From an uncultured Candidatus Saccharibacteria bacterium (lineage in GTDB: Bacteria; Patescibacteriota; Minisyncoccia; RBG-13-40-8-A; JAUWHN01), in contig CAYVAX010000001.1 in NCBI GenBank assembly GCA_964449235.1, positions 20,814 through 84,813 on the forward strand: 64,000 nt of DNA, in the 5' to 3' direction. The notes below the pieces were generated by a model. The model searched no databases, was not told where the DNA came from, and worked only from the letters and a program-made list of their open reading frames with translations. Positions 7,220 to 31,368 of this stretch are shown in pieces (position 1 is the first letter of the stretch; the number at the start of each line of letters is the position of its first letter). The translations under genes and the position numbers were made by a program.

Positions 7220-8511
7220 TGAATGAATACAAAATTAAGATTAATACCAAAAAAGAAAGTCCGATTATTGAAAATTTAAAGCAAAAAATACAACAAGAAG
7301 TAATTGGACAAGATCGCGCAATAAGACGATCCCTGCGAGCAGTTGCATCTTACTATAGCGGGCTAAAGGATCCTCGGCGGCCGATTGGAGGATTTATTTA
7401 TGCCGGTCCCACAGGAGTAGGAAAAACATTCGCCGCAAAAGTAAGTGCCAGACATTTTTTAGGAGGTAAACATAAATATCGCGACTATCTGGTTAGAATT
7501 GACGGCTCCACCCTCAGTGAAAGACATGAAGTTGCTAAGCTTAAAGGTGCTCCTCCAGGATATATTGGCTATGCTGAAACAAGCATTTTATCTCAAAAGA
7601 ATATTGATGCTTATCACTTTGACGTTTTAAATGAAGATAACGGTTACTGGGCAACTAAGCTGAAAAACTTTGACCAAGAAAAGCAAGCGGCCTTTCATGC
7701 TGGATCAAGAGAACAAGCTAGAAAAATTCAAGCATATCGTCTTTTAGAAGATGCATATGAAGCAAACAAGCCATATAAATCTGTGATTCTTTTTGATGAA
7801 ATTGAAAAAGCTCATCCTGCTATCTGGAATGTGTTGTTGCAAATTATGGAAGAGGGAAAAATTCAAATGGGAAAGGGCGTCGAAGAAACAGATTTCAGTA
7901 ATTCTCTGATAATCCTGACTACAAACATTGGACAAAGAAGCATCCAGGGATTAATCAGTAAAAATGCTCGTGTAGGATTTGATACTAGTCAGAATATTAC
8001 AGAAAGCAAATTAGACAAAAATATTTACGAATCCACTAAAAAACAGATTGAAAAAGAATTTCCTCCAGAATTATTCAAAAGACTGAATCTGGTAGTTTTC
8101 AGACCCTTATCAGAAGACAATTTTAAAAAAATTCTCGATAACTTTCTTGCCGACGAAGAAGAACTGCTTAATCAGCGAATAAAATATTTTTCCGCTCGTT
8201 CAATTGATATTGAGTATTCAAAATCAGCAAAGAAATTTTTATTAAAAAAGGGAATCGATGTTCATTACGGCGTAAGAACGCTAAGATCGGTTGTGGAAAA
8301 ATATGTTCGCGCTTCGCTTGCAAACGGATTAGCAAACAGAGAAATCCGTCCTGGTGATAGTATCTGGGTGGATGTTAAAAACAGTAAGTTGGTTTTTTTG
8401 AGAAAATACCGCAAACGCGGACCAAATGCTATTAAACGCAATCCCCAGCAATTTCAATCAAATTCAAATCAAGCTGGATTCCGCTTACTAAACGAAAAAT
8501 CCGAGCATTAA
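7219..8511 (+). CDS. Orphan Clp/Hsp100 D2-like AAA+ ATPase (single AAA module)
   Basis: Walker A YAGPTGVGKTFAAK; Walker B/sensor VILFDEIEKAHPAIWNVLLQIMEEGKI (Hsp100 D2 signature); ...LIILTTNIG. A ~50-aa insertion sits between Walker A and Walker B relative to ClpB D2. The ATG at 7219 has an AAGGAG SD 8 nt upstream; the track ORF starts earlier at 7180. Confidence 0.6.
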   Translation: MNEYKIKINTKKESPIIENLKQKIQQEVIGQDRAIRRSLRAVASYYSGLKDPRRPIGGFIYAGPTGVGKTFAAKVSARHFLGGKHKYRDYLVRIDGSTLSERHEVAKLKGAPPGYIGYAETSILSQKNIDAYHFDVLNEDNGYWATKLKNFDQEKQAAFHAGSREQARKIQAYRLLEDAYEANKPYKSVILFDEIEKAHPAIWNVLLQIMEEGKIQMGKGVEETDFSNSLIILTTNIGQRSIQGLISKNARVGFDTSQNITESKLDKNIYESTKKQIEKEFPPELFKRLNLVVFRPLSEDNFKKILDNFLADEEELLNQRIKYFSARSIDIEYSKSAKKFLLKKGIDVHYGVRTLRSVVEKYVRASLANGLANREIRPGDSIWVDVKNSKLVFLRKYRKRGPNAIKRNPQQFQSNSNQAGFRLLNEKSEH

Positions 8512-18090: not shown

Positions 18091-20235
18091 CTATAATTTG
18101 AGTTTAAATACTTTTTTTTCACATAAAAAATAAATTTCTTTTTCATTTCCAGTAACCCAAAAATCAGAAAGTCGGTTAAATTCTTTATTCACATACTGAT
18201 TTATTATCTCTCCTTTCCTGTTTAAAACAATTAAGCGCCTGTTCTCTGGATCGGATATATATAAATGCTTAAAATCAGATTCAACAAATAATTTGTTATT
18301 CCCGGATAATTGCTGATTTAATTTTAATGGTATTTGGCGAACTTCTTTTCCTTGAAAATACTCAGTTATTGTTCCTTGGGAATTGAGAACATAGATTGCG
18401 CCATCAATAGCCATGGATTGAGCAGTCTTTAATCCTTCTTCAGGCTGCGATAACCAACTTTTTCCATTAATGGTTTCTGCCTGTATTGACGATAAAGGAT
18501 ATTTTATAATCTCACCCTGCTGGGAATTTAATATGTAGAAATTAGAAAGAAACCTTCCCAAGCTTTGAATTTTTTCAATAGAGATTTCCGGGCTTAACAG
18601 GTAAGCTTCATGTTCTTTTGTGGCGCTGTTGTAAATATAAGCTTTGCCGCTTTGTCCAAACAAGATTATTTGTCCAGAATTTAAAGAAATCATTTTCCTT
18701 AATTCGTCTTTTGCGGAAATGAATATTAGGGTTAAAGAATTTTTTTCTTCTGTACTCAAATCTGACTTATAAAGAATGCCTGAATCCAATTCGTAAAAAT
18801 ATAGACTATTTTCTGCTTTACTAATTCCTGCAGGATTAACAATAAATCCAGTCTTAGAAAAATTTAAAACCTCCTCGAGCTGATTCACCCTAATTACGTT
18901 ATTAATGCTGTCTTGCTGATTTTGATATTTTTCCTCTAAGGTAAAGGCTCTGGCAATGACCTGCTCATTGTTTTTTAAGGATGCTTGTCGGGCATGATCA
19001 ATAAGACTAGAAAGCAAGGACTGGTTTCTTTCTATTAATGCTCGGGCCTTATCTTGCTGTTGGTAAATTAAGGCAGAATCTATCTTTTTTTGAATTGCTT
19101 GAACTTTTTCAGCTAACTGATTAAATGCATGCAGCTTGGTTAAATAATTAATCTTTTGAACAGTAAAATAGGGGAGAATTAAAATTAATAAAATTAAAAT
19201 TAATGAAATAATAAATGCAGGTTTGTTTTGATCTTTTAAATAATAATATTTTTTTCTAATTTTGTATTTTTCATTTAGTTTTTGAGGAATTTTGCGAGTG
19301 GTTATTGTTATCCGCTGGCAAACTGCAGTTTTTCCTATTGCTCTGGTTACTGGCCTCAAAAGCCTGAATCCTTTGCCCAGGAGTATAAATATAACTTTGA
19401 ATGTGGTTCCGATTTTTAAAATTATAGGTCTAAGCTTTCCAATGCTAATTCTTTTTTGCTTGGTTATTTTTTGTTCAATTTCAGGGCTAGTTTTTACTAT
19501 CTGAGGAGCAGTATCAGTAACAAACACTGGTTTTGCCTCTAATACCAGACTGACTAATGGAGGCTTAATTGATTTAGCCCTGGCTAAATTTTCAAAATTC
19601 AATATTATCCGATTACAATCTTTTGTAGAAAGCGCTTTCAGCTCTTTCAGGGAAGCAAGAGTTAGAATGTTTTTAGTGCCTAATACTAGTTTATCCCCGG
19701 GTATAATTTTTCCACTAGCAATATTATTAAATGTTTTTAGGGGAGGAACTTTTTCTGAGTCTGTGAATTTTTTTTCAATGTGGCTTACGCCCCCTTCTCT
19801 AAACAACTTAATCATTATATCTCCAGCCTGAGTGACATGAAGCGTGTTTTCGGTTAAAACACCACAAACAAAATGAAAATTGCCCATCCATTCTGTGTTT
19901 CCTTTTTCAGCAAAGTCGGCTAAATAAAGGTTTGCCTTGTTAAGGCTGGCCTCTAAAGCTTCTGCCCCGGAACGTTTAAAATCAGAATAAAATTCACGCT
20001 TAATTACCGAAATTAGCAGATTTAAAAGAAAGTCAGTGCTTTTATACTTGTTCTTGGGAATATTATCTATTTTTCCCAACATAAAAAGAGTACCCAATTT
20101 GGCCTCCTCAATGTTTTTTGGCTCATAGACAAAAAAATCATAAACACAGTCTGGATGTTTAGTTTTTCCTATCCCAGGGCTTTCTACTGGCCTAATAAAC
20201 TCTTTAGAATAAAATTGAAGATTATCTTCTGACAT
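18091..20235 (-). CDS. Hypothetical bitopic membrane protein: ~330-aa cytoplasmic N-domain (weak PP2C/PPM-like motifs, tentative), one TM helix, ~360-aa extracytoplasmic coiled-coil plus beta-propeller-like repeat region
   Basis: TM helix KPAFIISLILILLILILPYFTV. N-domain ...FHFVCGVLTENTLHVTQAGDIMIKLFREGG... resembles PPM motifs only loosely. The C-terminus has repeated ...LYISD...RLIVLN... beta-strand patterns. Confidence 0.35.
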   Translation of the reverse strand: MSEDNLQFYSKEFIRPVESPGIGKTKHPDCVYDFFVYEPKNIEEAKLGTLFMLGKIDNIPKNKYKSTDFLLNLLISVIKREFYSDFKRSGAEALEASLNKANLYLADFAEKGNTEWMGNFHFVCGVLTENTLHVTQAGDIMIKLFREGGVSHIEKKFTDSEKVPPLKTFNNIASGKIIPGDKLVLGTKNILTLASLKELKALSTKDCNRIILNFENLARAKSIKPPLVSLVLEAKPVFVTDTAPQIVKTSPEIEQKITKQKRISIGKLRPIILKIGTTFKVIFILLGKGFRLLRPVTRAIGKTAVCQRITITTRKIPQKLNEKYKIRKKYYYLKDQNKPAFIISLILILLILILPYFTVQKINYLTKLHAFNQLAEKVQAIQKKIDSALIYQQQDKARALIERNQSLLSSLIDHARQASLKNNEQVIARAFTLEEKYQNQQDSINNVIRVNQLEEVLNFSKTGFIVNPAGISKAENSLYFYELDSGILYKSDLSTEEKNSLTLIFISAKDELRKMISLNSGQIILFGQSGKAYIYNSATKEHEAYLLSPEISIEKIQSLGRFLSNFYILNSQQGEIIKYPLSSIQAETINGKSWLSQPEEGLKTAQSMAIDGAIYVLNSQGTITEYFQGKEVRQIPLKLNQQLSGNNKLFVESDFKHLYISDPENRRLIVLNRKGEIINQYVNKEFNRLSDFWVTGNEKEIYFLCEKKVFKLKL

Positions 20236-20322
20236 CGTTCTTATTGTAGCAGTTTTTAAGATGCTTTACAAGCTTTTAAAATAGGGTTATTATTAAAATA
20301 TATCAGGTTAATCAATAAAAAT

Positions 20323-21315
20323 ATGGCAAAATCTAAAACAAAAAAGAGTTCTAAAAAAAGAACTACAAAAAAAAGAAATAAAAGAAGAACAAAGAAAAGA
20401 ACAACTCCAAAGAGAAAAACAAAGTCAAGAAAAAAAACTCTTAAAAAGAGGCCCACTAAGAAAAGAAAATCCTCCAAAAAGAGGGGAGCTTCTCGAAAGC
20501 CTAAAAAAAGAACTACAAGAAAGAAACCAACAAAAACAAAGAGGTCCTATAGAAAAAAAAGAAAAACACCTAGAAAAAAGTATAGAACCAGAAAAAAACC
20601 AAAAACAAGAAAGACAACCAGGCGAAAACCAAAACAAAGATCACAAAAGAGAAAATCAGTTAAACGAAAGCGGGCCAAGAAAAAATATGCTCCTAAAAAG
20701 AAAACTAGAACATATCCTAACAAAGGATCTCTAGAGCAGTTATTTGAATCCGGTCCAAAGGTAAGGATTATGAAGCTATTTTTCAGAAATCCTGAAGAAA
20801 GCTTTTTATTTAAAGATGCAGCAAAACTAATGAGGATGAGAGCAGACACAGCCAGAAAAGAAATGAAAAAATTAGAAACAATTGGACTGTTAAGAAGTAG
20901 AAAAATATCCCCCCGAAAACAATTATTTTCTATTGACCACAGCTTTAATTTCCTTAACGAGCTTCGAGAATTAATCTTAAAGGCCAGTCCAGTCCCCAAA
21001 GACAGACTATTAAAAACAATCAGAAAATTGGGGAAAATTAAAATGGTTCTGGTTTCAGGAATATTTCTCGGAGAAGATGCCCCTAAAACTAATCGCGGAA
21101 CAACTCGTACAGATTTGCTGATTGTAGGAGATAATGTTAGCTCTAGAAAAGTAAGCCGGTTTATAAAAAACATTGAAGCTGAAGCAGGAACAAATGTAAA
21201 CTGCGCAGTAATGAGCGCTAAAGACTTTAAATATCGGTATAACATGTACGACAGATTTGTAAGGGACTTGATTAACGAAAAATCAGAGTTTTTAATGAAT
21301 AAATTGAAGTTTTAA
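20323..21315 (+). CDS. Histone-H1-like basic-tail protein: ~125-aa K/R/T-rich low-complexity N-terminus + C-terminal winged-helix-like and nucleotidyltransferase-like (degenerate) region
   Basis: N-terminus KSKTKKSSKKRTTKKRNKRRTKKRTTPKRKTKSRKK... (over 60% K/R). C-terminus ...VRIMKLFFRNPEESFLFKDAAKLMRMRADTARKEMKKLETIGLL... and ...LVSGIFLGEDAPKTNRGTTRTDLLIVGD... Confidence 0.5.
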   Translation: MAKSKTKKSSKKRTTKKRNKRRTKKRTTPKRKTKSRKKTLKKRPTKKRKSSKKRGASRKPKKRTTRKKPTKTKRSYRKKRKTPRKKYRTRKKPKTRKTTRRKPKQRSQKRKSVKRKRAKKKYAPKKKTRTYPNKGSLEQLFESGPKVRIMKLFFRNPEESFLFKDAAKLMRMRADTARKEMKKLETIGLLRSRKISPRKQLFSIDHSFNFLNELRELILKASPVPKDRLLKTIRKLGKIKMVLVSGIFLGEDAPKTNRGTTRTDLLIVGDNVSSRKVSRFIKNIEAEAGTNVNCAVMSAKDFKYRYNMYDRFVRDLINEKSEFLMNKLKF

Positions 21316-21387
21316 GGGCATTTAGTTCAGTGGTAGAACGTTCGCTTCACATGCGAAAGGTCGCAGGTTCGATCCCTGCAGTGCCCA
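21316..21387 (+). tRNA. tRNA-Val (anticodon CAC), no encoded CCA; starts on the nucleotide after the preceding gene's stop
   Basis: Cloverleaf read by hand: acceptor GGGCATT/AGTGCCC (one G-U pair), D-arm GTTC-AGTGGTA-GAAC, anticodon stem TTCGC/GCGAA with loop TTCACAT, T-arm GCAGG-TTCGATC-CCTGC, discriminator A. Confidence 0.9.
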
Positions 21388-21391
21388 TTTT

Positions 21392-21424
21392 AAACGATTA
21401 AATTTAATTTAATCGTTTTTTTGT
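21392..21424 (+). terminator. Rho-independent terminator after tRNA-Val
   Basis: aaacgattaaa-tttaa-tttaatcgttt + tttttt. Confidence 0.75.
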
Positions 21425-21440
21425 TTATGGTATAATAAAA

Positions 21441-21842
21441 ATGATGAGATTGATTTTGAAAAAACCAATAATTTTGCAGTTTTGGAAATGGTATTATACA
21501 GAAGCAATAAAAAGCCTGATTAACATTTGGAAAAATTTTATTATCTTTGTTCAGGAATACTATTCTATTCCTTTGCTGTTAAAAACTTTAGTTGCTCCTT
21601 GGAAAAGGGATGTTACTCGCAAGCCTCGAGGTTTGGATATTAAAAAACTTCTTGAGGCTTTTACTTTTAATGCTATTTCCAGAACTATTGGATTTTTTGT
21701 TAGGTCAGTAACAATTGTTTTTGGCTTAATTTGTTTGTTGGGCGTAATTATTTTAGGATTTGTAGCTTTAATTATTTGGTTAATCCTTCCGTTTGCACTA
21801 ATATTCCTTGTTATTATGGGAATATTGTTGCTTGCAGGTTAA
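21441..21842 (+). CDS. Small hypothetical membrane protein (C-terminal 2 TM helices)
   Basis: 133 aa. ...VTIVFGLICLLGVIILGFVALIIWLILPFALIFLVIMGILLLAG. Its stop immediately precedes the ATG of the next gene (ggtTAAtATG). Confidence 0.45.
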   Translation: MMRLILKKPIILQFWKWYYTEAIKSLINIWKNFIIFVQEYYSIPLLLKTLVAPWKRDVTRKPRGLDIKKLLEAFTFNAISRTIGFFVRSVTIVFGLICLLGVIILGFVALIIWLILPFALIFLVIMGILLLAG

Positions 21843-21843
21843 T

Positions 21844-24390
21844 ATGGGGTTTGATTTAAAATCAACAACTATTTATCAGATAGTTAAATTGGCAAAAGTA
21901 TTTTCTCCCAAGTTAGTACTTGTTATGAACTGGCTGTTTTTAATTATTACTTTTTCGTTATTAGTAGTGTTTTTAGGCAATCAACCGTTTTTACAATTGA
22001 GCTCTGGTCAAGTATTCGGTCTCTTTTTAATTGTATTAAGCTTTAATATTTTTGGATGGATTTGGTTAATATTTTTTAAGGCTGTTTTAAGAGAAAATAC
22101 TTTACTCAAGGTTCCTTTAGAAAAAGTAACCTCTTTTACAGAAATTGAAAATTTAAATTTAGCTGAATATTTAGACTTTATAATCGTAGATGCTTTAATT
22201 GATGCTATTAACTTTTGCAAACGAAAAAGGATTTCGCTTACGGCCTTAATAGTAGTATTGTTCTTATTCAAGAATGAACGGGTAAATAAAGTATTTGATA
22301 AATTAGGAATTGCTAAAAAGGAAATAAAAAGGGCTGTAAGCAAAAAAGAGGCAAATCTAAAACCCAGCAAGTTATTGTACAGTCAAAACTTTTTAAAAAT
22401 TATTAACCAATCGGCAAAAGCAGCAATTGCAAATTTTCACCGCCAAATAGAGGTTAAGGATTTTTTAGTAACTGCTGCAGAATACGATAATGATTTTAGG
22501 GAAATTTTATTTGACAACGATCTTGAATATGCTGATGTAAATCACGTAATTGCCTGGGACAATTTTATCACCTACGAAGCTGAATGGAAAAGCAAGTTCT
22601 GGAAACTAGAAAATCTTTTAAAAAGGCCCGGAATTGGAAAACAATGGGCAGCCGGGCATACTGTCAATGTTGATAAATACGCTACAGATGTTACCAAATT
22701 AATAAAACATAAAGACATTCCTCTTCACGTTGTAGGAAGAAAAACGGAAATTGAAACCATTGAAAGAATCCTTTCGCGCAGAGGAGAAAATAATGTATTG
22801 GTGATTGGTAAGCCTGGAGGAGGAAGATCAACAATTGTTTACAGTTTTGCTAAAAAAATCATGGAAGGAAGATCTGTTCCGGGATTGAATTACAAACGAG
22901 TATTGGAAATAGATATGCAAGCAATGTTTGCAGGATTAAAAACCCATGGAGAAATTTTGGATAGATTTAAAATTGTTTTTTCAGAAGCAGCAAATGCTGG
23001 CAATGTCATTTTAATAATTGACGACATTCATAACTATATTGGAGAACAAAAAGGAGTAGGAGGATTGGATATTTCCTCAGCATTAACCTCTTATCTTGGC
23101 TCTCCTGAACTTCAAGTTATTGGGGTAACTACTTTTTCAGGATTTCATAAAAACATTGAAACCAATCCCGCAGTTATGAACTTCTTTGAAAAAGTTGAAA
23201 TTGAAGAACCTTCTAAAAAAGAATCAATGTTTGTTTTAGAAGATTTGCTTCCTAAATTTGAAAAAGAATATGGTTTAAAGGTGGGATATAAAGGGTTAAG
23301 AACGGTTATTGACCTCACCGACCGATACATTCAGGATGTTCCTTTTCCGGAAAAAGCAATTGATTTCTTGGGAGAGGTAATGGTGTATGTAAAAACACAA
23401 ACCAATTCTCGAGTCGTTCTTCCGGAGCATGTTGCCCAGGTTATTTCTCAAAAAACTAAAATACCAGCTGGAGAAATTCAAAAGACTGAAAAAGAAAAAC
23501 TATTAAAACTAGAAGAATACATTCACCAGCGGGTTGTTGACCAGGAAGAAGCTGTTAATGCTCTAGCAGATGCAATGAGAAGAAGTCGGGCAGGAGTTGC
23601 TGGACGGAATAAGCCTATTGGGACATTTTTGTTTCTTGGTCCCACAGGGGTAGGAAAAACAGAAACTTCCAAAGCATTAGCAGAATCATATTTTGGCTCA
23701 GAAAAAGAAATGATCCGATTAGATATGTCTGAATACCAAAGCATACAATCAATCAATCGCCTTATTGGCTCTTCAGACGGAACTCAGGGACTATTAACCA
23801 ATGCTATTAGGGAAAGACCTTTTTCTTTGGTTTTGTTAGATGAAATAGAAAAAGCTCATCCGAACATTTTAAATTTATTTCTCCAGGTTTTAGATGAAGG
23901 ACGTTTGACTGATAATTTGGGCAGGACAGTAAGCTTTCGAAATTCAATTATTATTGGAACATCCAATGCTGGCGCAGAATTTATACGCCAATATCTCGGT
24001 CAAGAAAAAAAACCTAGCTACGATTATGCTGCATTTAAAAAAGAACTGATAAATAATCTTTTAGAGCGGGGCATTTTTCGACCAGAATTTCTTAATCGTT
24101 TTGATGCTACAATAACCTTTAAGCCTTTGTCTCCAGAAGATTTAACATTGATTGCGAAATTAATGCTCCAGAAATTAAACCAACGTCTTGTTCATGGAAG
24201 AGGAATTCAGTTAGTAATAACTGATGAGCTGGCAAAGAAAGTAGCAGAATTGGGATATAATCCTGAATTTGGAGCAAGACCGATGAATAGGGTTATCCAG
24301 GATAGGATCGAAAATAAAATTGCTAAAAAAATACTATCTGGCCAGCTTAGAAAAGGAGATGCTATAGAATTAAAAACTGAAGAAATTTAA
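21844..24390 (+). CDS. Membrane-anchored ClpB/ClpC-like Hsp100 protein: polytopic TM N-terminus, degenerate (pseudo-ATPase) D1, intact D2, no M-domain and no ClpP-binding IGF loop
   Basis: D1 Walker A is VLVIGKPGGGRST (Lys to Arg), Walker B is ILIIDDIH (Glu to Asp), and the Arg-finger position reads NFFEK. D2 is intact: FLFLGPTGVGKTETSKALAE, LVLLDEIEKAHPNILNLFLQVLDEGRLTDNLGRTVSFRNSIIIGTSNAG, GARPMNRVIQ. N-terminal TM helices MNWLFLIITFSLLVVFLG, VFGLFLIVLSFNIFGWIWLIFF. The track ORF begins at 21808; the ATG at 21844 is used here. Confidence 0.65.
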   Translation: MGFDLKSTTIYQIVKLAKVFSPKLVLVMNWLFLIITFSLLVVFLGNQPFLQLSSGQVFGLFLIVLSFNIFGWIWLIFFKAVLRENTLLKVPLEKVTSFTEIENLNLAEYLDFIIVDALIDAINFCKRKRISLTALIVVLFLFKNERVNKVFDKLGIAKKEIKRAVSKKEANLKPSKLLYSQNFLKIINQSAKAAIANFHRQIEVKDFLVTAAEYDNDFREILFDNDLEYADVNHVIAWDNFITYEAEWKSKFWKLENLLKRPGIGKQWAAGHTVNVDKYATDVTKLIKHKDIPLHVVGRKTEIETIERILSRRGENNVLVIGKPGGGRSTIVYSFAKKIMEGRSVPGLNYKRVLEIDMQAMFAGLKTHGEILDRFKIVFSEAANAGNVILIIDDIHNYIGEQKGVGGLDISSALTSYLGSPELQVIGVTTFSGFHKNIETNPAVMNFFEKVEIEEPSKKESMFVLEDLLPKFEKEYGLKVGYKGLRTVIDLTDRYIQDVPFPEKAIDFLGEVMVYVKTQTNSRVVLPEHVAQVISQKTKIPAGEIQKTEKEKLLKLEEYIHQRVVDQEEAVNALADAMRRSRAGVAGRNKPIGTFLFLGPTGVGKTETSKALAESYFGSEKEMIRLDMSEYQSIQSINRLIGSSDGTQGLLTNAIRERPFSLVLLDEIEKAHPNILNLFLQVLDEGRLTDNLGRTVSFRNSIIIGTSNAGAEFIRQYLGQEKKPSYDYAAFKKELINNLLERGIFRPEFLNRFDATITFKPLSPEDLTLIAKLMLQKLNQRLVHGRGIQLVITDELAKKVAELGYNPEFGARPMNRVIQDRIENKIAKKILSGQLRKGDAIELKTEEI

Positions 24391-30308: not shown

Positions 30309-31283
30309 ATGCCTAGGAAGAATATAGCAGTTTTAATGGGCGGAATGTCTTCAGAGCATGAAGTTTCTTTAAATACCGGGAAAAATGTAGTTAAACACTT
30401 GGATAAGCAAAAATACAGGATTAGAACGATTACAATTAGCAAGAATGGAGGATGGATAGTAAATAGCAAGAAAATAGGCATTGAGCAGGCACTGGAGGGG
30501 ATTGAGGTGGTATTTAATGCCCTTCATGGTGAATACGGAGAAGATGGCCGTATCCAGGGCTTATTAGACTGTATTGGCATTCCCTATACCGGTTCTGGGG
30601 TTTTAGCCAGTGCTGTAGGAATGAATAAAGTGATAAGCAGAAACCTATTTGAATCCCGGGGATTAAAAATACCGCAAGCAGTTATTGCCCAAGATGCATC
30701 CCAGTGCTTGAAACAAAACTTAGCGCGTTTAGGAAAAAAATTAGTGATTAAACCTTCTTGTCTGGGATCGAGCGTAGGAATTAAAATTATTGACAGCAGA
30801 GATAAAAAGGGCCTTAAGCAAGCTATAAGCCAAGCGCGAGAAAAGTGCAATAAAGTTATTATTGAAGAATATATTCCTGGCCTGGAAGTTACTTGTGGAA
30901 TATTAGACCCCGGACCTGATGACAAAAACAAAATTTTAGCTTTGCCAGTAACTGAAATTATTCCCCCAAATGGAAAGTTTTTTGATTACAAAGTTAAGTA
31001 TGACGGCTCTACGCAAGAAATTACTCCTGCAAGAATTAATAAAAAACTCTCTAAAACAATCCAGGAACAGGCAATTAAAGCTCACCGATCACTAGAATGT
31101 CGAGGTTATTCCCGGGTAGATTTCATTTTAAAAAATAAAAAAATTCCCTATGTCTTGGAAGTTAATACCTTGCCGGGATTAACCAGTGAATCTCTTTTGC
31201 CAAAAGCGGCAAAAGAAGCAGGTATTGAATTTTCAAAATTATTGGATATAATAATTAGGAATGCTTTTGGCCCCGTCGTCTAG
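30309..31283 (+). CDS. ddl: D-alanine--D-alanine ligase
   Basis: MPRKNIAVLMGGMSSEHEVSLNTGKNV...; ATP-grasp motifs ...EEYIPGLEVTCGIL... and ...YSRVDFIL...LEVNTLPGLT. The last 15 nt overlap the tRNA-Glu. Confidence 0.85.
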   Translation: MPRKNIAVLMGGMSSEHEVSLNTGKNVVKHLDKQKYRIRTITISKNGGWIVNSKKIGIEQALEGIEVVFNALHGEYGEDGRIQGLLDCIGIPYTGSGVLASAVGMNKVISRNLFESRGLKIPQAVIAQDASQCLKQNLARLGKKLVIKPSCLGSSVGIKIIDSRDKKGLKQAISQAREKCNKVIIEEYIPGLEVTCGILDPGPDDKNKILALPVTEIIPPNGKFFDYKVKYDGSTQEITPARINKKLSKTIQEQAIKAHRSLECRGYSRVDFILKNKKIPYVLEVNTLPGLTSESLLPKAAKEAGIEFSKLLDIIIRNAFGPVV

Positions 31284-31341
31284 CGGCCGAGGACATCAGG
31301 TTCTCATCCTGAAAACAGGGGTTCGAGTCCCCTCGGGGCTA
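31269..31341 (+). tRNA. tRNA-Glu (anticodon CTC), 73 nt with discriminator, no encoded CCA
   Basis: Acceptor GGCCCCG/CGGGGCT (G1-U72), anticodon stem TCAGG/CCTGA with loop TTCTCAT, T-arm AGGGG-TTCGAGT-CCCCT. Overall similarity to bacterial tRNA-Glu (GTCTAG.GGCC.AGGAC D-arm). Confidence 0.85.
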
Positions 31342-31368
31342 TAGTTATTTAATGTTAAGAATATATTC

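Follow-up and report, generated by a model that had tools for sequence, protein, structure and literature searches.

Introduction

The MNT antitoxins of HEPN-MNT (type VII) systems catalyse AMPylation and have HEPN partners, and other Pol-beta-fold enzymes, the CCA-adding enzymes and the MenT toxins, act on tRNA ends. Tails of the histone H1 and PAKKA types are rich in lysine, alanine and proline and poor in arginine. The Patescibacteria (CPR) account for a large share of bacterial diversity and have tiny genomes; to our knowledge almost nothing is known of how their DNA is organised and regulated. MNT/HEPN pairs are common and mobile (PMC3710099, PMC12988326). PDC-M05, a candidate system in PADLOC composed of a nucleotidyltransferase (NTase) and a HEPN protein, is enriched in archaea, and its antiviral role is unconfirmed (PMC12988326). 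A precedent for the fusion of an H1-like tail to a bacterial regulator is Streptomyces DdbA (PMC3643593).

The window, that is, the whole 64-kb stretch of DNA analysed here, encodes a protein of 330 aa with a strongly basic N-terminal tail. By sequence this protein is a homologue of the wHTH-NTase protein PDC-M05A, here without partner or catalytic residues, an ancestry unnoticed earlier. It belongs to a large family that is specific to Patescibacteria and occupies one of their most conserved gene blocks. The family has neither a Pfam nor an NCBIfam model and is annotated as hypothetical only, and the literature on lysine-rich and nucleoid proteins in Patescibacteria and on wHTH-MNT fusions yielded nothing on it.

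Architecture and kinship with PDC-M05A

In the ORF list the TAA stop is included in the coordinates of the gene, and an identical protein (P0001) is present on public contigs. Neither the whole protein nor its core gave a significant match in Pfam, NCBIfam or the PDB sequences. For residues 131-330 a confident fold was predicted, a MarR/ArsR-like winged helix followed by a minimal-nucleotidyltransferase (MNT) fold with the alpha-beta-alpha-beta-alpha-beta core of active Pol-beta-superfamily MNT proteins. Both the winged-helix-like segment and the degenerate minimal nucleotidyltransferase-like (Pol-beta superfamily) domain proposed by a first-pass annotation of the sequence were thereby borne out. 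The winged helix-turn-helix (wHTH) gave weak sequence signals to HTH_20, MarR, Rrf2, TrmB and Lrs14, all Pfam and NCBIfam matches lying below curated cut-offs, and a Foldseek match to Sso10a-2. MarR/ArsR-family regulators and the archaeal chromatin protein Sso10a have the wHTH fold in common with the window protein, which differs from MarR in lacking its dimerisation helices and in carrying an unrelated C-terminal partner domain.

Table 1. Features of the gene, its protein and the adjoining tRNA gene, in window coordinates.
Feature	Position	Strand	Remarks
Promoter-like TTTACA-17 nt-TATTAT	20265..20293	+	putative; ~30 nt 5' of start codon; 10/12 consensus match
CDS: poly-K/R tail, wHTH and NTase-like putative pseudo-enzyme domain	20323..21315	+	pI 11.7, 39 kDa
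N-terminal polycationic tail, aa 1-130	20323..20712	+	60% K/R, no D/E, net +78
Winged helix-turn-helix, aa 136-205	20728..20937	+	conserved basic residues in third helix (R178, K179) and wing
Minimal-nucleotidyltransferase-fold domain, aa 226-330	20998..21312	+	
Degenerate hG[GS] motif, S245-G246 then I247	21055..21060	+	aligned M05A FGS is SGI here
Degenerate DxD motif, R262-T263-D264	21106..21114	+	M05A SDIDL is TRTDL here, SRVDL in relatives
F-x-Y-R-Y-x-M-Y-D-R-F-V-R-D, aa 302-315	21226..21267	+	most conserved motif of the family; two C-terminal helices
tRNA-Val(CAC)	21316..21387	+	ARAGORN; Rfam 72 bits; CCA not encoded
Intrinsic terminator, 12-bp AT-rich perfect hairpin and U-run	21392..21422 (hairpin 21392..21418)	+	-9.8 kcal/mol

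Kinship with component A of PDC-M05 was found in both search directions. The PADLOC model PDLC04368 (PDC-M05A) matched the 200-aa core at E = 1e-21, core residues 8-197 aligning with 8-191 of 201, four further PDC-M05A models matched it at 1e-10 to 2e-3, and another family member, P0089, matched PDC-M05A at E = 6e-28. With a bona fide M05A from a Bradyrhizobium plasmid as query, phmmer found 86 family ORFs at E <= 1e-3, the best at 1e-16. The window protein has both elements of component A, a wHTH and a Pol-beta-type NTase matching the models. The two are alike in length (~200 aa), in the order of wHTH, linker helices and MNT fold, and in the columns G246, D264, G269 and D310. M05A keeps FGS and SDID and reaches the Pfam Polbeta/NTP_transf_2 thresholds, whereas the Patescibacteria family has SG[IV] and [RK]xD; its median net charge is +13, against +1 and +2 for M05A; a tRNA or rRNA stands where the partner would in M05A loci, in a fixed ribosomal-protein neighbourhood; and one of its clades carries a polycationic tail. 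Compared with the type VII MNT antitoxins (Shewanella SO_3166, PDB 5yep; 8xeh; 7ae2; HI0073, 1no5), the window protein has degenerate motifs, an added N-terminal wHTH and tail, and no partner that could be found.

The tRNA-Val junction and the conserved neighbourhood

ARAGORN and Rfam both start tRNA-Val at 21316 and the TAA ends at 21315, so that the tRNA gene begins directly after the stop codon, as the first-pass annotation had stated. The terminator said to be shared by gene and tRNA was located as a hairpin and U-run just downstream; its hairpin has z = -3.5, 0 of 200 shuffles folded as well, and the AT-rich stem explains why a consensus scanner failed to report it. A single promoter-like site precedes gene and tRNA and a single terminator follows them, and a CTTTACAA box stands at the equivalent position upstream of tailed orthologues L003, L017, L018, L019, L037 and L038. 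Gaps between gene and tRNA measure 0-15 nt, or there is a 1-nt overlap, which leaves a separate tRNA promoter no room. The arrangement points to co-transcription of the gene with tRNA-Val, one part of the joint reading given below, which we put at even chances. An internal tRNA promoter picked out by eye within the final 50 nt of the gene (TTGATT-17-TTTAAT) is unlikely, its -10 lacking the critical A2 and the scan being silent there. Elsewhere in the same genome ddl overlaps tRNA-Glu by ~15 nt; tight or overlapping gene-tRNA junctions are thus a habit of this genome, which makes the zero-nt gap less remarkable than the conserved pairing.

That pairing, the conservation of which the first-pass annotation had suggested checking, is kept far beyond the host genome. 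A same-strand tRNA-Val(CAC) lies downstream in 53 of 80 species loci (at most 20 nt away in 23), and rplJ-rplL-X-tRNA-Val(CAC), X being the family gene, forms a conserved block in 53/80. The gene is followed by 23S rRNA in 8/80 loci, and most loci have a same-strand rplL that ends 3-250 nt before X. In the tailed clade a divergent 714-aa gene lies between rplL and X, and X has its own predicted promoter. If X is transcribed together with a tRNA, and in most relatives also with rplJL, it is probably highly expressed. The conserved gene order among these reduced genomes may nevertheless reflect inertia rather than functional coupling. The family is present in at least 478 species genomes, with 620 clusters matching at E <= 1e-30 and ~1,850 50%-identity clusters at E <= 1e-10; no homologues were found in phage genomes, and a second deep search with a C-domain profile returned family members alone.

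Proposed role of the family

The reading that we prefer, and to which we give about an even chance, is that X is a catalytically dead wHTH protein of antitoxin type that has been domesticated, binds nucleic acid and is co-transcribed with tRNA-Val; the nucleoid-associated or RNA-binding function suggested by the first-pass annotation is plausible. The ancestor would have been a wHTH-MNT protein of the PDC-M05A or MNT-antitoxin type, normally paired with a HEPN toxin. The winged helix would dock on nucleic acid, most likely duplex DNA, like its MarR/ArsR-like and antitoxin relatives, and the dead NTase domain would serve as a module for oligomerisation, partner binding or nucleotide sensing. 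The tail would be a disordered polyanion clamp that raises non-specific affinity and neutralises charge, in the manner of the C-terminal tails of linker histone H1, mycobacterial HupB and Streptomyces DdbA, and in the tailed clade it may have turned a site-binding protein into a nucleoid-coating one. A single transcript of mRNA and tRNA-Val would run from the TTTACA/TATTAT promoter to the common terminator, and RNase P, by cutting at tRNA position +1, would leave the mRNA with a 3' end that coincides with the stop codon; in six species the end so made would fall inside the stop codon. Stop codons that abut or overlap tRNA 5' ends raise the question of how translation is terminated on RNase P-processed transcripts. 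If the preferred reading is true, an enzyme of toxin-antitoxin or defence type has lost both its catalysis and its partner and become established as a nucleic-acid-binding protein with a housekeeping role, and one clade, by adding a histone-tail-like polycation to it, provides a natural experiment.

A broader proposal, which we regard as doubtful, has antitoxin-derived X recruited into the stable-RNA/translation block as a chromatin/transcription or ribosome-biogenesis factor. Under the first option X would be lineage-specific and serve the loci of r-proteins, tRNAs and rRNAs. Under either, tRNA punctuation of the mRNA would physically couple the output of X to tRNA-Val, and in the Portnoybacteria-like clade a tail of 24-285 aa would make of X a linker histone analogue, a winged helix with a basic disordered tail, that condenses the nucleoid.

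Alternatively, X could be a factor linked to RNA or the ribosome: an assembly factor, a chaperone or an RsfS-like silencer that binds pre-tRNA, rRNA or the ribosome itself, with the K/R tail working like the basic extensions of ribosomal proteins. We consider this a tentative possibility. The sequence homology of X is to wHTH-MNT antitoxin-type proteins, however, and not to RsfS: the RsfS/Iojap/MALSU1 silencing factors gave low Z scores against the window protein (3.9-4.7) with no sequence match, lack a wHTH, and have a gene neighbourhood unlike that of X. The top sequence matches of the wHTH are DNA-binding regulators. Synteny is by itself weak evidence for such a role; in the tailed clade, moreover, X is set apart by the divergent 714-aa gene before it and its own predicted promoter.

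The basic N-terminal tail

Residues 1-130 consist of K (39%), R (21%), T (15%), S (8%), P (6%) and A (3%), with no D or E, which agrees with the K/R/T/P/S-dominated N-terminus first described, and the strings then quoted (TTKKR, RKKPTKTKR and PRKKYRTRKKPK) are all present in the protein. The tail has the highest K/R density of all ORFs in the window (0.65 in a 40-aa window; runner-up 0.475). The strong charge of the core (pI 10.2) was given less weight as a sign of nucleic-acid binding because basic proteins are the rule in the window (median pI 9.5, n = 54). Adenine makes up 60% of the tail DNA and purines 75%, compared with 53% purines in the window; it is thus the purine-rich low-complexity tract that had been reported. 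A strict tandem repeat or array was rejected, Tandem Repeats Finder giving weak, overlapping, low-score periodicities alone; the tail is compositional low complexity. Over the tract, antisense ORFs at 20256..20477, 20425..20637 and 20547..21245 and one alternative plus-strand frame are open. The longest antisense open stretch spans 254 codons here against a median of 91 in orthologues, so that the long antisense ORF is not conserved; these frames, already called spurious, were rejected as real genes and are by-products of T-poor DNA. The tail itself must be translated, since in-frame ATG, GTG and TTG are absent from codons 2 to 138 and the nearly invariant LEQLFxS helix begins at residue 137.

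The tail, which is 24-285 aa long, was gained once, in a monophyletic, Portnoybacteria-like clade that includes the host genome. According to the first-pass annotation, a basic region missing from orthologues would count against its reading; the tail is present throughout the orthologous clade but is absent from most of the family (it occurs in ~5 of the best 150 50%-identity clusters), and therefore cannot define the function of the family. Its sequence turns over quickly at constant composition. Against the closest orthologue identity is 40% in the tail and 85% in the core, and the 72 matches in the tail alignment barely exceed the shuffled expectation of 60 +/- 4. This, together with the range of lengths across the clade, the A-rich DNA and a family that mostly works tail-less, would suit a tail that is a selectively neutral, functionless by-product of poly-purine slippage and AT bias, as would a second K-rich tail in the window, on ribosomal protein L21, which indicates that mutational bias contributes. 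We nevertheless think a neutral origin unlikely. The single gain was kept while cores of the tailed clade diverged down to ~45% identity; D/E make up 0-3% of the tail in every orthologue, although GAA/GAG are one purine substitution from AAA/AAG; the reading frame is always kept through to the core, whereas other frames usually have stops; and a Sungbacteria relative independently acquired a K/R-rich insertion in the wing of its wHTH.

The resemblance to linker histones that had been proposed holds for composition and architecture but not for descent. No match to Linker_histone (PF00538) was found at E <= 1 in the window protein or 66 family members, nor was there a match to HU, and a histone H1 homologue was rejected for lack of the domain match. 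H1/H5 tails are C-terminal and K/A/P-rich; the tail here is N-terminal, A-poor and R/T-rich. What the window protein has in common with H1 and with bacterial H1-like proteins (Chlamydia Hc1/Hc2, mycobacterial HupB/MDP1, Streptomyces HupS and DdbA, Deinococcus HU) is a long, disordered, acid-free polycation on a small nucleic-acid-binding globular domain, to which it adds an NTase-fold domain. The globular domain of H1 is also a winged helix; the likeness is architectural and presumably a physico-chemical analogy.

The nucleotidyltransferase-like domain

The signature residues of active NTases are degenerate throughout the family. G246 is invariant, but the next residue is I, V or L in 66/66 sequences where active NTases have Ser or Gly. 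The carboxylate pair [DE]h[DE]h of strand 2 is likewise broken: the first metal-binding Asp is replaced by R or K in 56/66 family members and the second, D264, is alone retained and invariant. The earlier statement that one of two acidic residues remains was thus upheld, the register being fixed by aligning SDIDL of bona fide M05A with TRTDL. The hG[SG]-x17-TDLLIVGD motif was also found, though with a spacing of 16 rather than 17 residues, 7 of which belong to an insertion that most family members lack. The column before strand 3, assigned by sequence register only, holds E or D in 54/66 members and N291 in the window protein. The window protein has no match to Pfam NTP_transf_2 or Polbeta at gathering score, and P0089 just reaches that of PF01909 (21.5 vs 21 bits). 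In the C-terminal motif (aa 302-315) F, R and D are invariant, and conservation of Y, M, R and D reaches 90% or more; only columns D310, F312, V313 and R314 are shared, in part, with M05A. The family-wide loss of the G-S and first-Asp residues suggests that the domain is catalytically dead, a component of the preferred reading held at the same even confidence.

Near-invariance of D264, D270, E285, E287, R305, D310, R314 and D315 makes a non-canonical active or ligand site conceivable. X might accordingly still be an enzyme, a non-canonical nucleotidyltransferase using D264 with D270, E285 and E287, perhaps on the 3' end of tRNA-Val or another RNA; the invariant G246, the absence of CCA from the tRNA-Val gene and the action of Pol-beta-fold enzymes at tRNA ends would fit. 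Such an activity is improbable given a cationic residue at the first metal-binding position, a hydrophobic one at the Ser/Gly of hG[GS], Asn at the presumed third carboxylate, and no Pfam NTase model that the window protein reaches.

Search for a HEPN partner

In both plasmid loci examined, M05B follows the M05A gene at a distance of 0-11 nt. When phmmer was run with two bona fide M05B queries on the six-frame ORFs from the window and from 92 family loci, none came up at E <= 1; the M05A query run on the same data as a positive control found its 86. The neighbouring orf133 and 714-aa protein gave no PADLOC M05B match, and the adjacent HEPN component (PDC-M05B) of the system is thus missing here; the gene for a HEPN partner may lie beyond the 64-kb window. 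That X is a genuine toxin-antitoxin or phage-defence component of PDC-M05 type, with a HEPN partner elsewhere or too diverged, would agree with the significant full-length PADLOC match and the mobility of MNT/HEPN pairs but is very improbable, because M05B was not found in the window and the 92 loci where M05A was, the residues for AMPylating a toxin are lost, and hundreds of species have inherited X vertically at one fixed housekeeping site, just the reverse of what a defence island shows; membership in such a system was rejected. Defence-system finders may consequently flag PDC-M05 component A in CPR genomes that have no defence module.

Results and Discussion

An AlphaFold2 model of the core of X (residues 131-330), derived from an alignment of 66 sequences, was confident (pLDDT 89, pTM 0.80); in it a winged helix (136-205) is joined through two linker helices to an alpha/beta domain. 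Foldseek searches of the PDB matched the winged helix, already suspected in the first-pass annotation, to MarR-type regulators and the archaeal chromatin protein Sso10a-2, and returned no chain spanning both core domains. The profile of the family (Patescibacteria homologues of X) matched wHTH regulators in the PDB (E = 6e-5), and many wHTH models of Pfam and NCBIfam were touched, every one below threshold. Modelled by itself, the C-terminal domain reached pLDDT 74; by sequence it matched nothing in Pfam or the PDB, the sole exception being the family protein P0089, which barely attains the NTP_transf_2 gathering score across the entire domain. In the PADLOC library, the 200-aa core aligned end to end with PDC-M05A, the wHTH-nucleotidyltransferase of a candidate system (E = 1e-21, and down to 6e-28 for relatives). 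The reading we favour, with about an even chance of being right, is a package of nucleic-acid-binding wHTH, dead NTase module and polyanion-clamp tail, encoded on one gene-tRNA transcript.

Database searches showed the family to be large and restricted to Patescibacteria. X has 125 close matches; at least 478 GTDB species genomes carry the family (Portnoy-, Paceibacter-, Sungii-, Azam-, Zambryski-, Ryan- and Moraniibacteria labels), and 50%-identity clusters number 620 at E <= 1e-30 and 1,849 at E <= 1e-10. Neighbourhoods were counted in 80 species loci. In a large majority, rplJ-rplL lies directly upstream on the same strand, with rplL ending 3-250 nt from the start. The pairing of gene and tRNA proved to be conserved, tRNA-Val(CAC) following on the same strand in 53/80 loci, within 20 nt in 23 of these; barring two exceptions, the downstream tRNA is always this one. 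In 8/80 loci, and additionally in loci L007 and L009, the gene is followed at 0.3-2 kb by a 23S rRNA of the same orientation; in 3/80 the 23S comes after the tRNA. Frequently mraZ-rsmH and the division/cell-wall cluster are downstream. This synteny is that of a housekeeping, vertically inherited gene, the reverse of a defence island. Distant family loci with this placement of 23S rRNA are L007, L009, L059, L077, L083, L086, L088 and L090, besides the two in the table.

In the window, ARAGORN and Rfam agree that tRNA-Val(CAC) begins directly after the stop codon, as first described. The hairpin beyond it (-9.8 kcal/mol, z = -3.5) was matched in folding by 0/200 shuffles, and is absent from the consensus terminator scan because that scan demands three G-C pairs. 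A promoter scan found one sigma-70-like site and no other on the + strand from there through to tRNA-Val. X and tRNA-Val would form a single transcript, cut by RNase P at the stop codon. In six species (L005, L031, L034, L039, L042, L073) tRNA-Val(CAC) takes its nucleotide +1 from the stop codon, the G of TAG serving both, an overlap confirmed by eye for L005, and the 7-bp acceptor stem requires that G. RNase P processing at these junctions would leave mRNAs ending in UA, which recalls mitochondrial tRNA punctuation. Similarly, the ddl mRNA would lose its stop codon upon processing of tRNA-Glu(CTC). As this ddl overlap shows, genes and tRNAs are habitually packed close together in this genome; it is the conserved pairing that informs, not the zero-nt gap after X.

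Features in the window and at family loci (L-numbers, public contigs)
Feature	Location	Strand	Remarks
L7/L12 ORF	17461..18018	+	185 aa; Pfam domains only from residue 65
714-aa protein	18091..20235	-	no Pfam match; weak PADLOC RdrB match, E = 4e-4
Sigma-70-like site	20265..20293	+	TTTACA-17-TATTAT
X	20323..21315	+	330 aa, TAA stop
tRNA-Val(CAC)	21316..21387	+	ARAGORN, Rfam
Terminator hairpin	21392..21418	+	perfect 12-bp AT-rich stem, then U-run; 4 bases past tRNA
133-aa protein	21441..21842	+	hydrophobic C-terminus; no family match
ClpB-like double-AAA ATPase	21808..24390	+	860 aa, TTG start
ddl (D-Ala-D-Ala ligase)	30309..31283	+	overlaps tRNA-Glu(CTC) 5' end by ~15 nt
tRNA-Glu(CTC)	31268..31342	+	contains ddl TAG stop
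Ribosomal protein L21	36111..36524	+	Pfam E = 3e-35
Stop/tRNA-Val junction	L005 6580-6582		
23S rRNA	L078 4967-8453		5S rRNA follows
23S rRNA	L087 4966-8052		group I intron at 7782-8052
tRNA-like matches	L083 4892-5046; L007 10135-10207		within 23S spans
Ribosomal L10 leader RF00557	L016 120-240; L038 490-608		upstream of rplJ
Split family gene	L092 2158-2463 and 2501-2890		wHTH ORF + NTase-domain ORF; Sungbacteria lineage

The gene neighbours of X point to the main rival, an RNA- or ribosome-linked role, for which RsfS, a ribosome-bound pseudo-enzyme with an NTase fold, provides a precedent; we consider it less likely than the favoured package. In the favoured package the winged helix would bind nucleic acid, DNA being the likelier ligand because the domain is MarR/ArsR-like and of antitoxin ancestry. 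The basic charge of the core was down-weighted as evidence since the median pI of the 54 window proteins is already 9.5; that of tail-less homologues is 9.8, and whole X has a pI of 11.7.

The tail (residues 1-130) is 39% K, 21% R, 15% T, 8% S, 6% P and 3% A with no D/E, much as the first-pass annotation described it, and its net charge is +78. Its best 40-aa window contains 0.65 K+R vs 0.475 for the next-ranked among all ORFs of the 64 kb, the C-terminal tail of ribosomal protein L21. The DNA coding for the tail of X (A 60%, purine 75%) is of compositional low complexity with no repeat array. Its low T content leaves one further + frame and several on the antisense strand without stops; orthologues do not preserve the long antisense ORF, and the overlapping ORFs are therefore by-products, spurious as had been supposed. 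The tail itself must be translated, because no in-frame ATG, GTG or TTG occurs between codons 2 and 138 and LEQLFxS, the helix that opens the core and is nearly invariant, starts at residue 137.

Among the 120 closest proteins, ~70 have an N-terminal extension of 27-157 aa (50-67% K/R, 0-3% D/E), and the remainder, 30-45% identical in the core, have no more than a few residues ahead of it; the longest tail observed (P0122) is 285 aa. In a neighbour-joining tree of cores all tailed proteins fall in one Portnoybacteria-like clade, whose few 'tail-less' members are genes that were called too short, so the tail arose a single time. The basic region thus holds for orthologues throughout the tailed clade and not for the remaining family, only ~5 of the best 150 50%-identity clusters being tailed. 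The two closest proteins are 85% identical in the core vs 40% in the tail, and global alignment of their tails gave 72 matches vs 60 +/- 4 for shuffled tails (~3 SD above). Sequence and length drift rapidly while the charge character is kept. A purely neutral origin is improbable, given retention of the tail in the clade and its strict absence of acidic residues. The tail may be a disordered polyanion clamp, comparable in action to the C-terminal domain of H1 and to the HupB, HupS and DdbA tails (PMC3643593, PMC11229371); the likeness to histone H1 is analogy only. Since in the tailed clade a divergently oriented ~700-aa gene sits between X and rplL, and a conserved CTTTACAA box lies upstream of X, tailed members putatively have their own promoter.

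A Sungbacteria relative has an independent K/R-rich insertion in the wHTH wing. The split gene of L092 encodes a 101-aa wHTH part, ending in a K/R-rich wing insertion, and a 129-aa NTase-like part; such splits recur on at least 24 contigs, so they are not sequencing errors.

PDC-M05 combines a nucleotidyltransferase with a HEPN-domain protein, an arrangement typical of toxin-antitoxin pairs, and is enriched in archaea, its antiviral role being unconfirmed (PMC12988326). By tblastn, two bona fide M05A proteins of ~200 aa were found on Bradyrhizobium and Comamonas plasmids. They score 250-273 bits on M05A and exceed the Pfam Polbeta and NTP_transf_2 thresholds; in each case a protein of 127-146 aa, scoring 185-205 bits on M05B, the HEPN partner, is encoded no more than 11 nt downstream. 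Aligning them with the Patescibacteria proteins fixed the register of the motifs, FVFGSV....SDIDLMVIGD of M05A corresponding to LVSGIF....TRTDLLIVGD in X and VLSGVF....SRVDLLIVGD in P0089. TRTDL lies opposite SDIDL with the second Asp kept, in line with the single acidic residue reported initially. Family-wide, I/V/L follows the invariant Gly of hG[GS], vs Ser/Gly in active enzymes; R/K replaces the first metal-binding Asp in 56/66 sequences, leaving only the second, and where a third carboxylate is usual, 54/66 have E/D and X has Asn. From these family-wide changes the canonical active site is, as judged by alignment, lost throughout the family and not in X alone. Unlike active minimal nucleotidyltransferases, X fails two of three catalytic motifs, and residual catalysis is very unlikely. 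D270, E285, E287, R305, D310, R314, D315 and the motif FxYRYxMYDRFxRD are nearly invariant, which argues that some functional surface is conserved; the dead domain may be a structural, partner-binding or ligand-sensing module.

X resembles component A of PDC-M05, but the defining second component was not found: phmmer (E <= 1) detected no M05B-like protein across the window and 92 family loci, while a plasmid M05A, searched in the same way, hit 86 family ORFs (best 1e-16). That X belongs to a genuine toxin-antitoxin pair whose partner lies elsewhere is very unlikely.

Neither domain fold is new; the closest described relative is PDC-M05A, and the ancestry lies in a candidate family already known. 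No literature on the family was found, and databases name its members only 'hypothetical protein' or by a generic guess. What appear to be undescribed are an inactivated M05A without a partner, the fixation of this form in an rplJL-tRNA-Val/23S block across a whole bacterial radiation, and the polycationic tail gained once. The family is no categorical surprise, and is a good target for work on CPR chromatin, gene regulation and toxin-antitoxin domestication.

Several neighbouring features were also observed. No RF00557 leader was found upstream of 16869 in the window at the gathering threshold. The L7/L12 ORF either has a 60-aa N-terminal extension or a miscalled start. L21 carries a ~35-aa K-rich C-terminal extension (KKTKRTAGKQSSPKKKKQTKKPAKKPVKKKSNK), which ranks second in the window for K/R richness. 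The 714-aa protein, transcribed divergently from X, has a hydrophobic central segment, and its homologues lie between X and rplL in the tailed clade and a few tail-less loci (L050, L066). The family domain of P0189 (1071 aa, public metagenome) follows an 870-aa N-terminal region that contains Ser/Thr-rich linkers and a lipase-like GHSMGG motif; this fusion or read-through may be a gene-call artefact. The ClpB-like ATPase lacks a recognisable Clp_N domain, its N-terminal region being hydrophobic instead; its ORF is overlapped by the 133-aa ORF by 35 nt, and the pair is kept downstream of X in the tailed clade.
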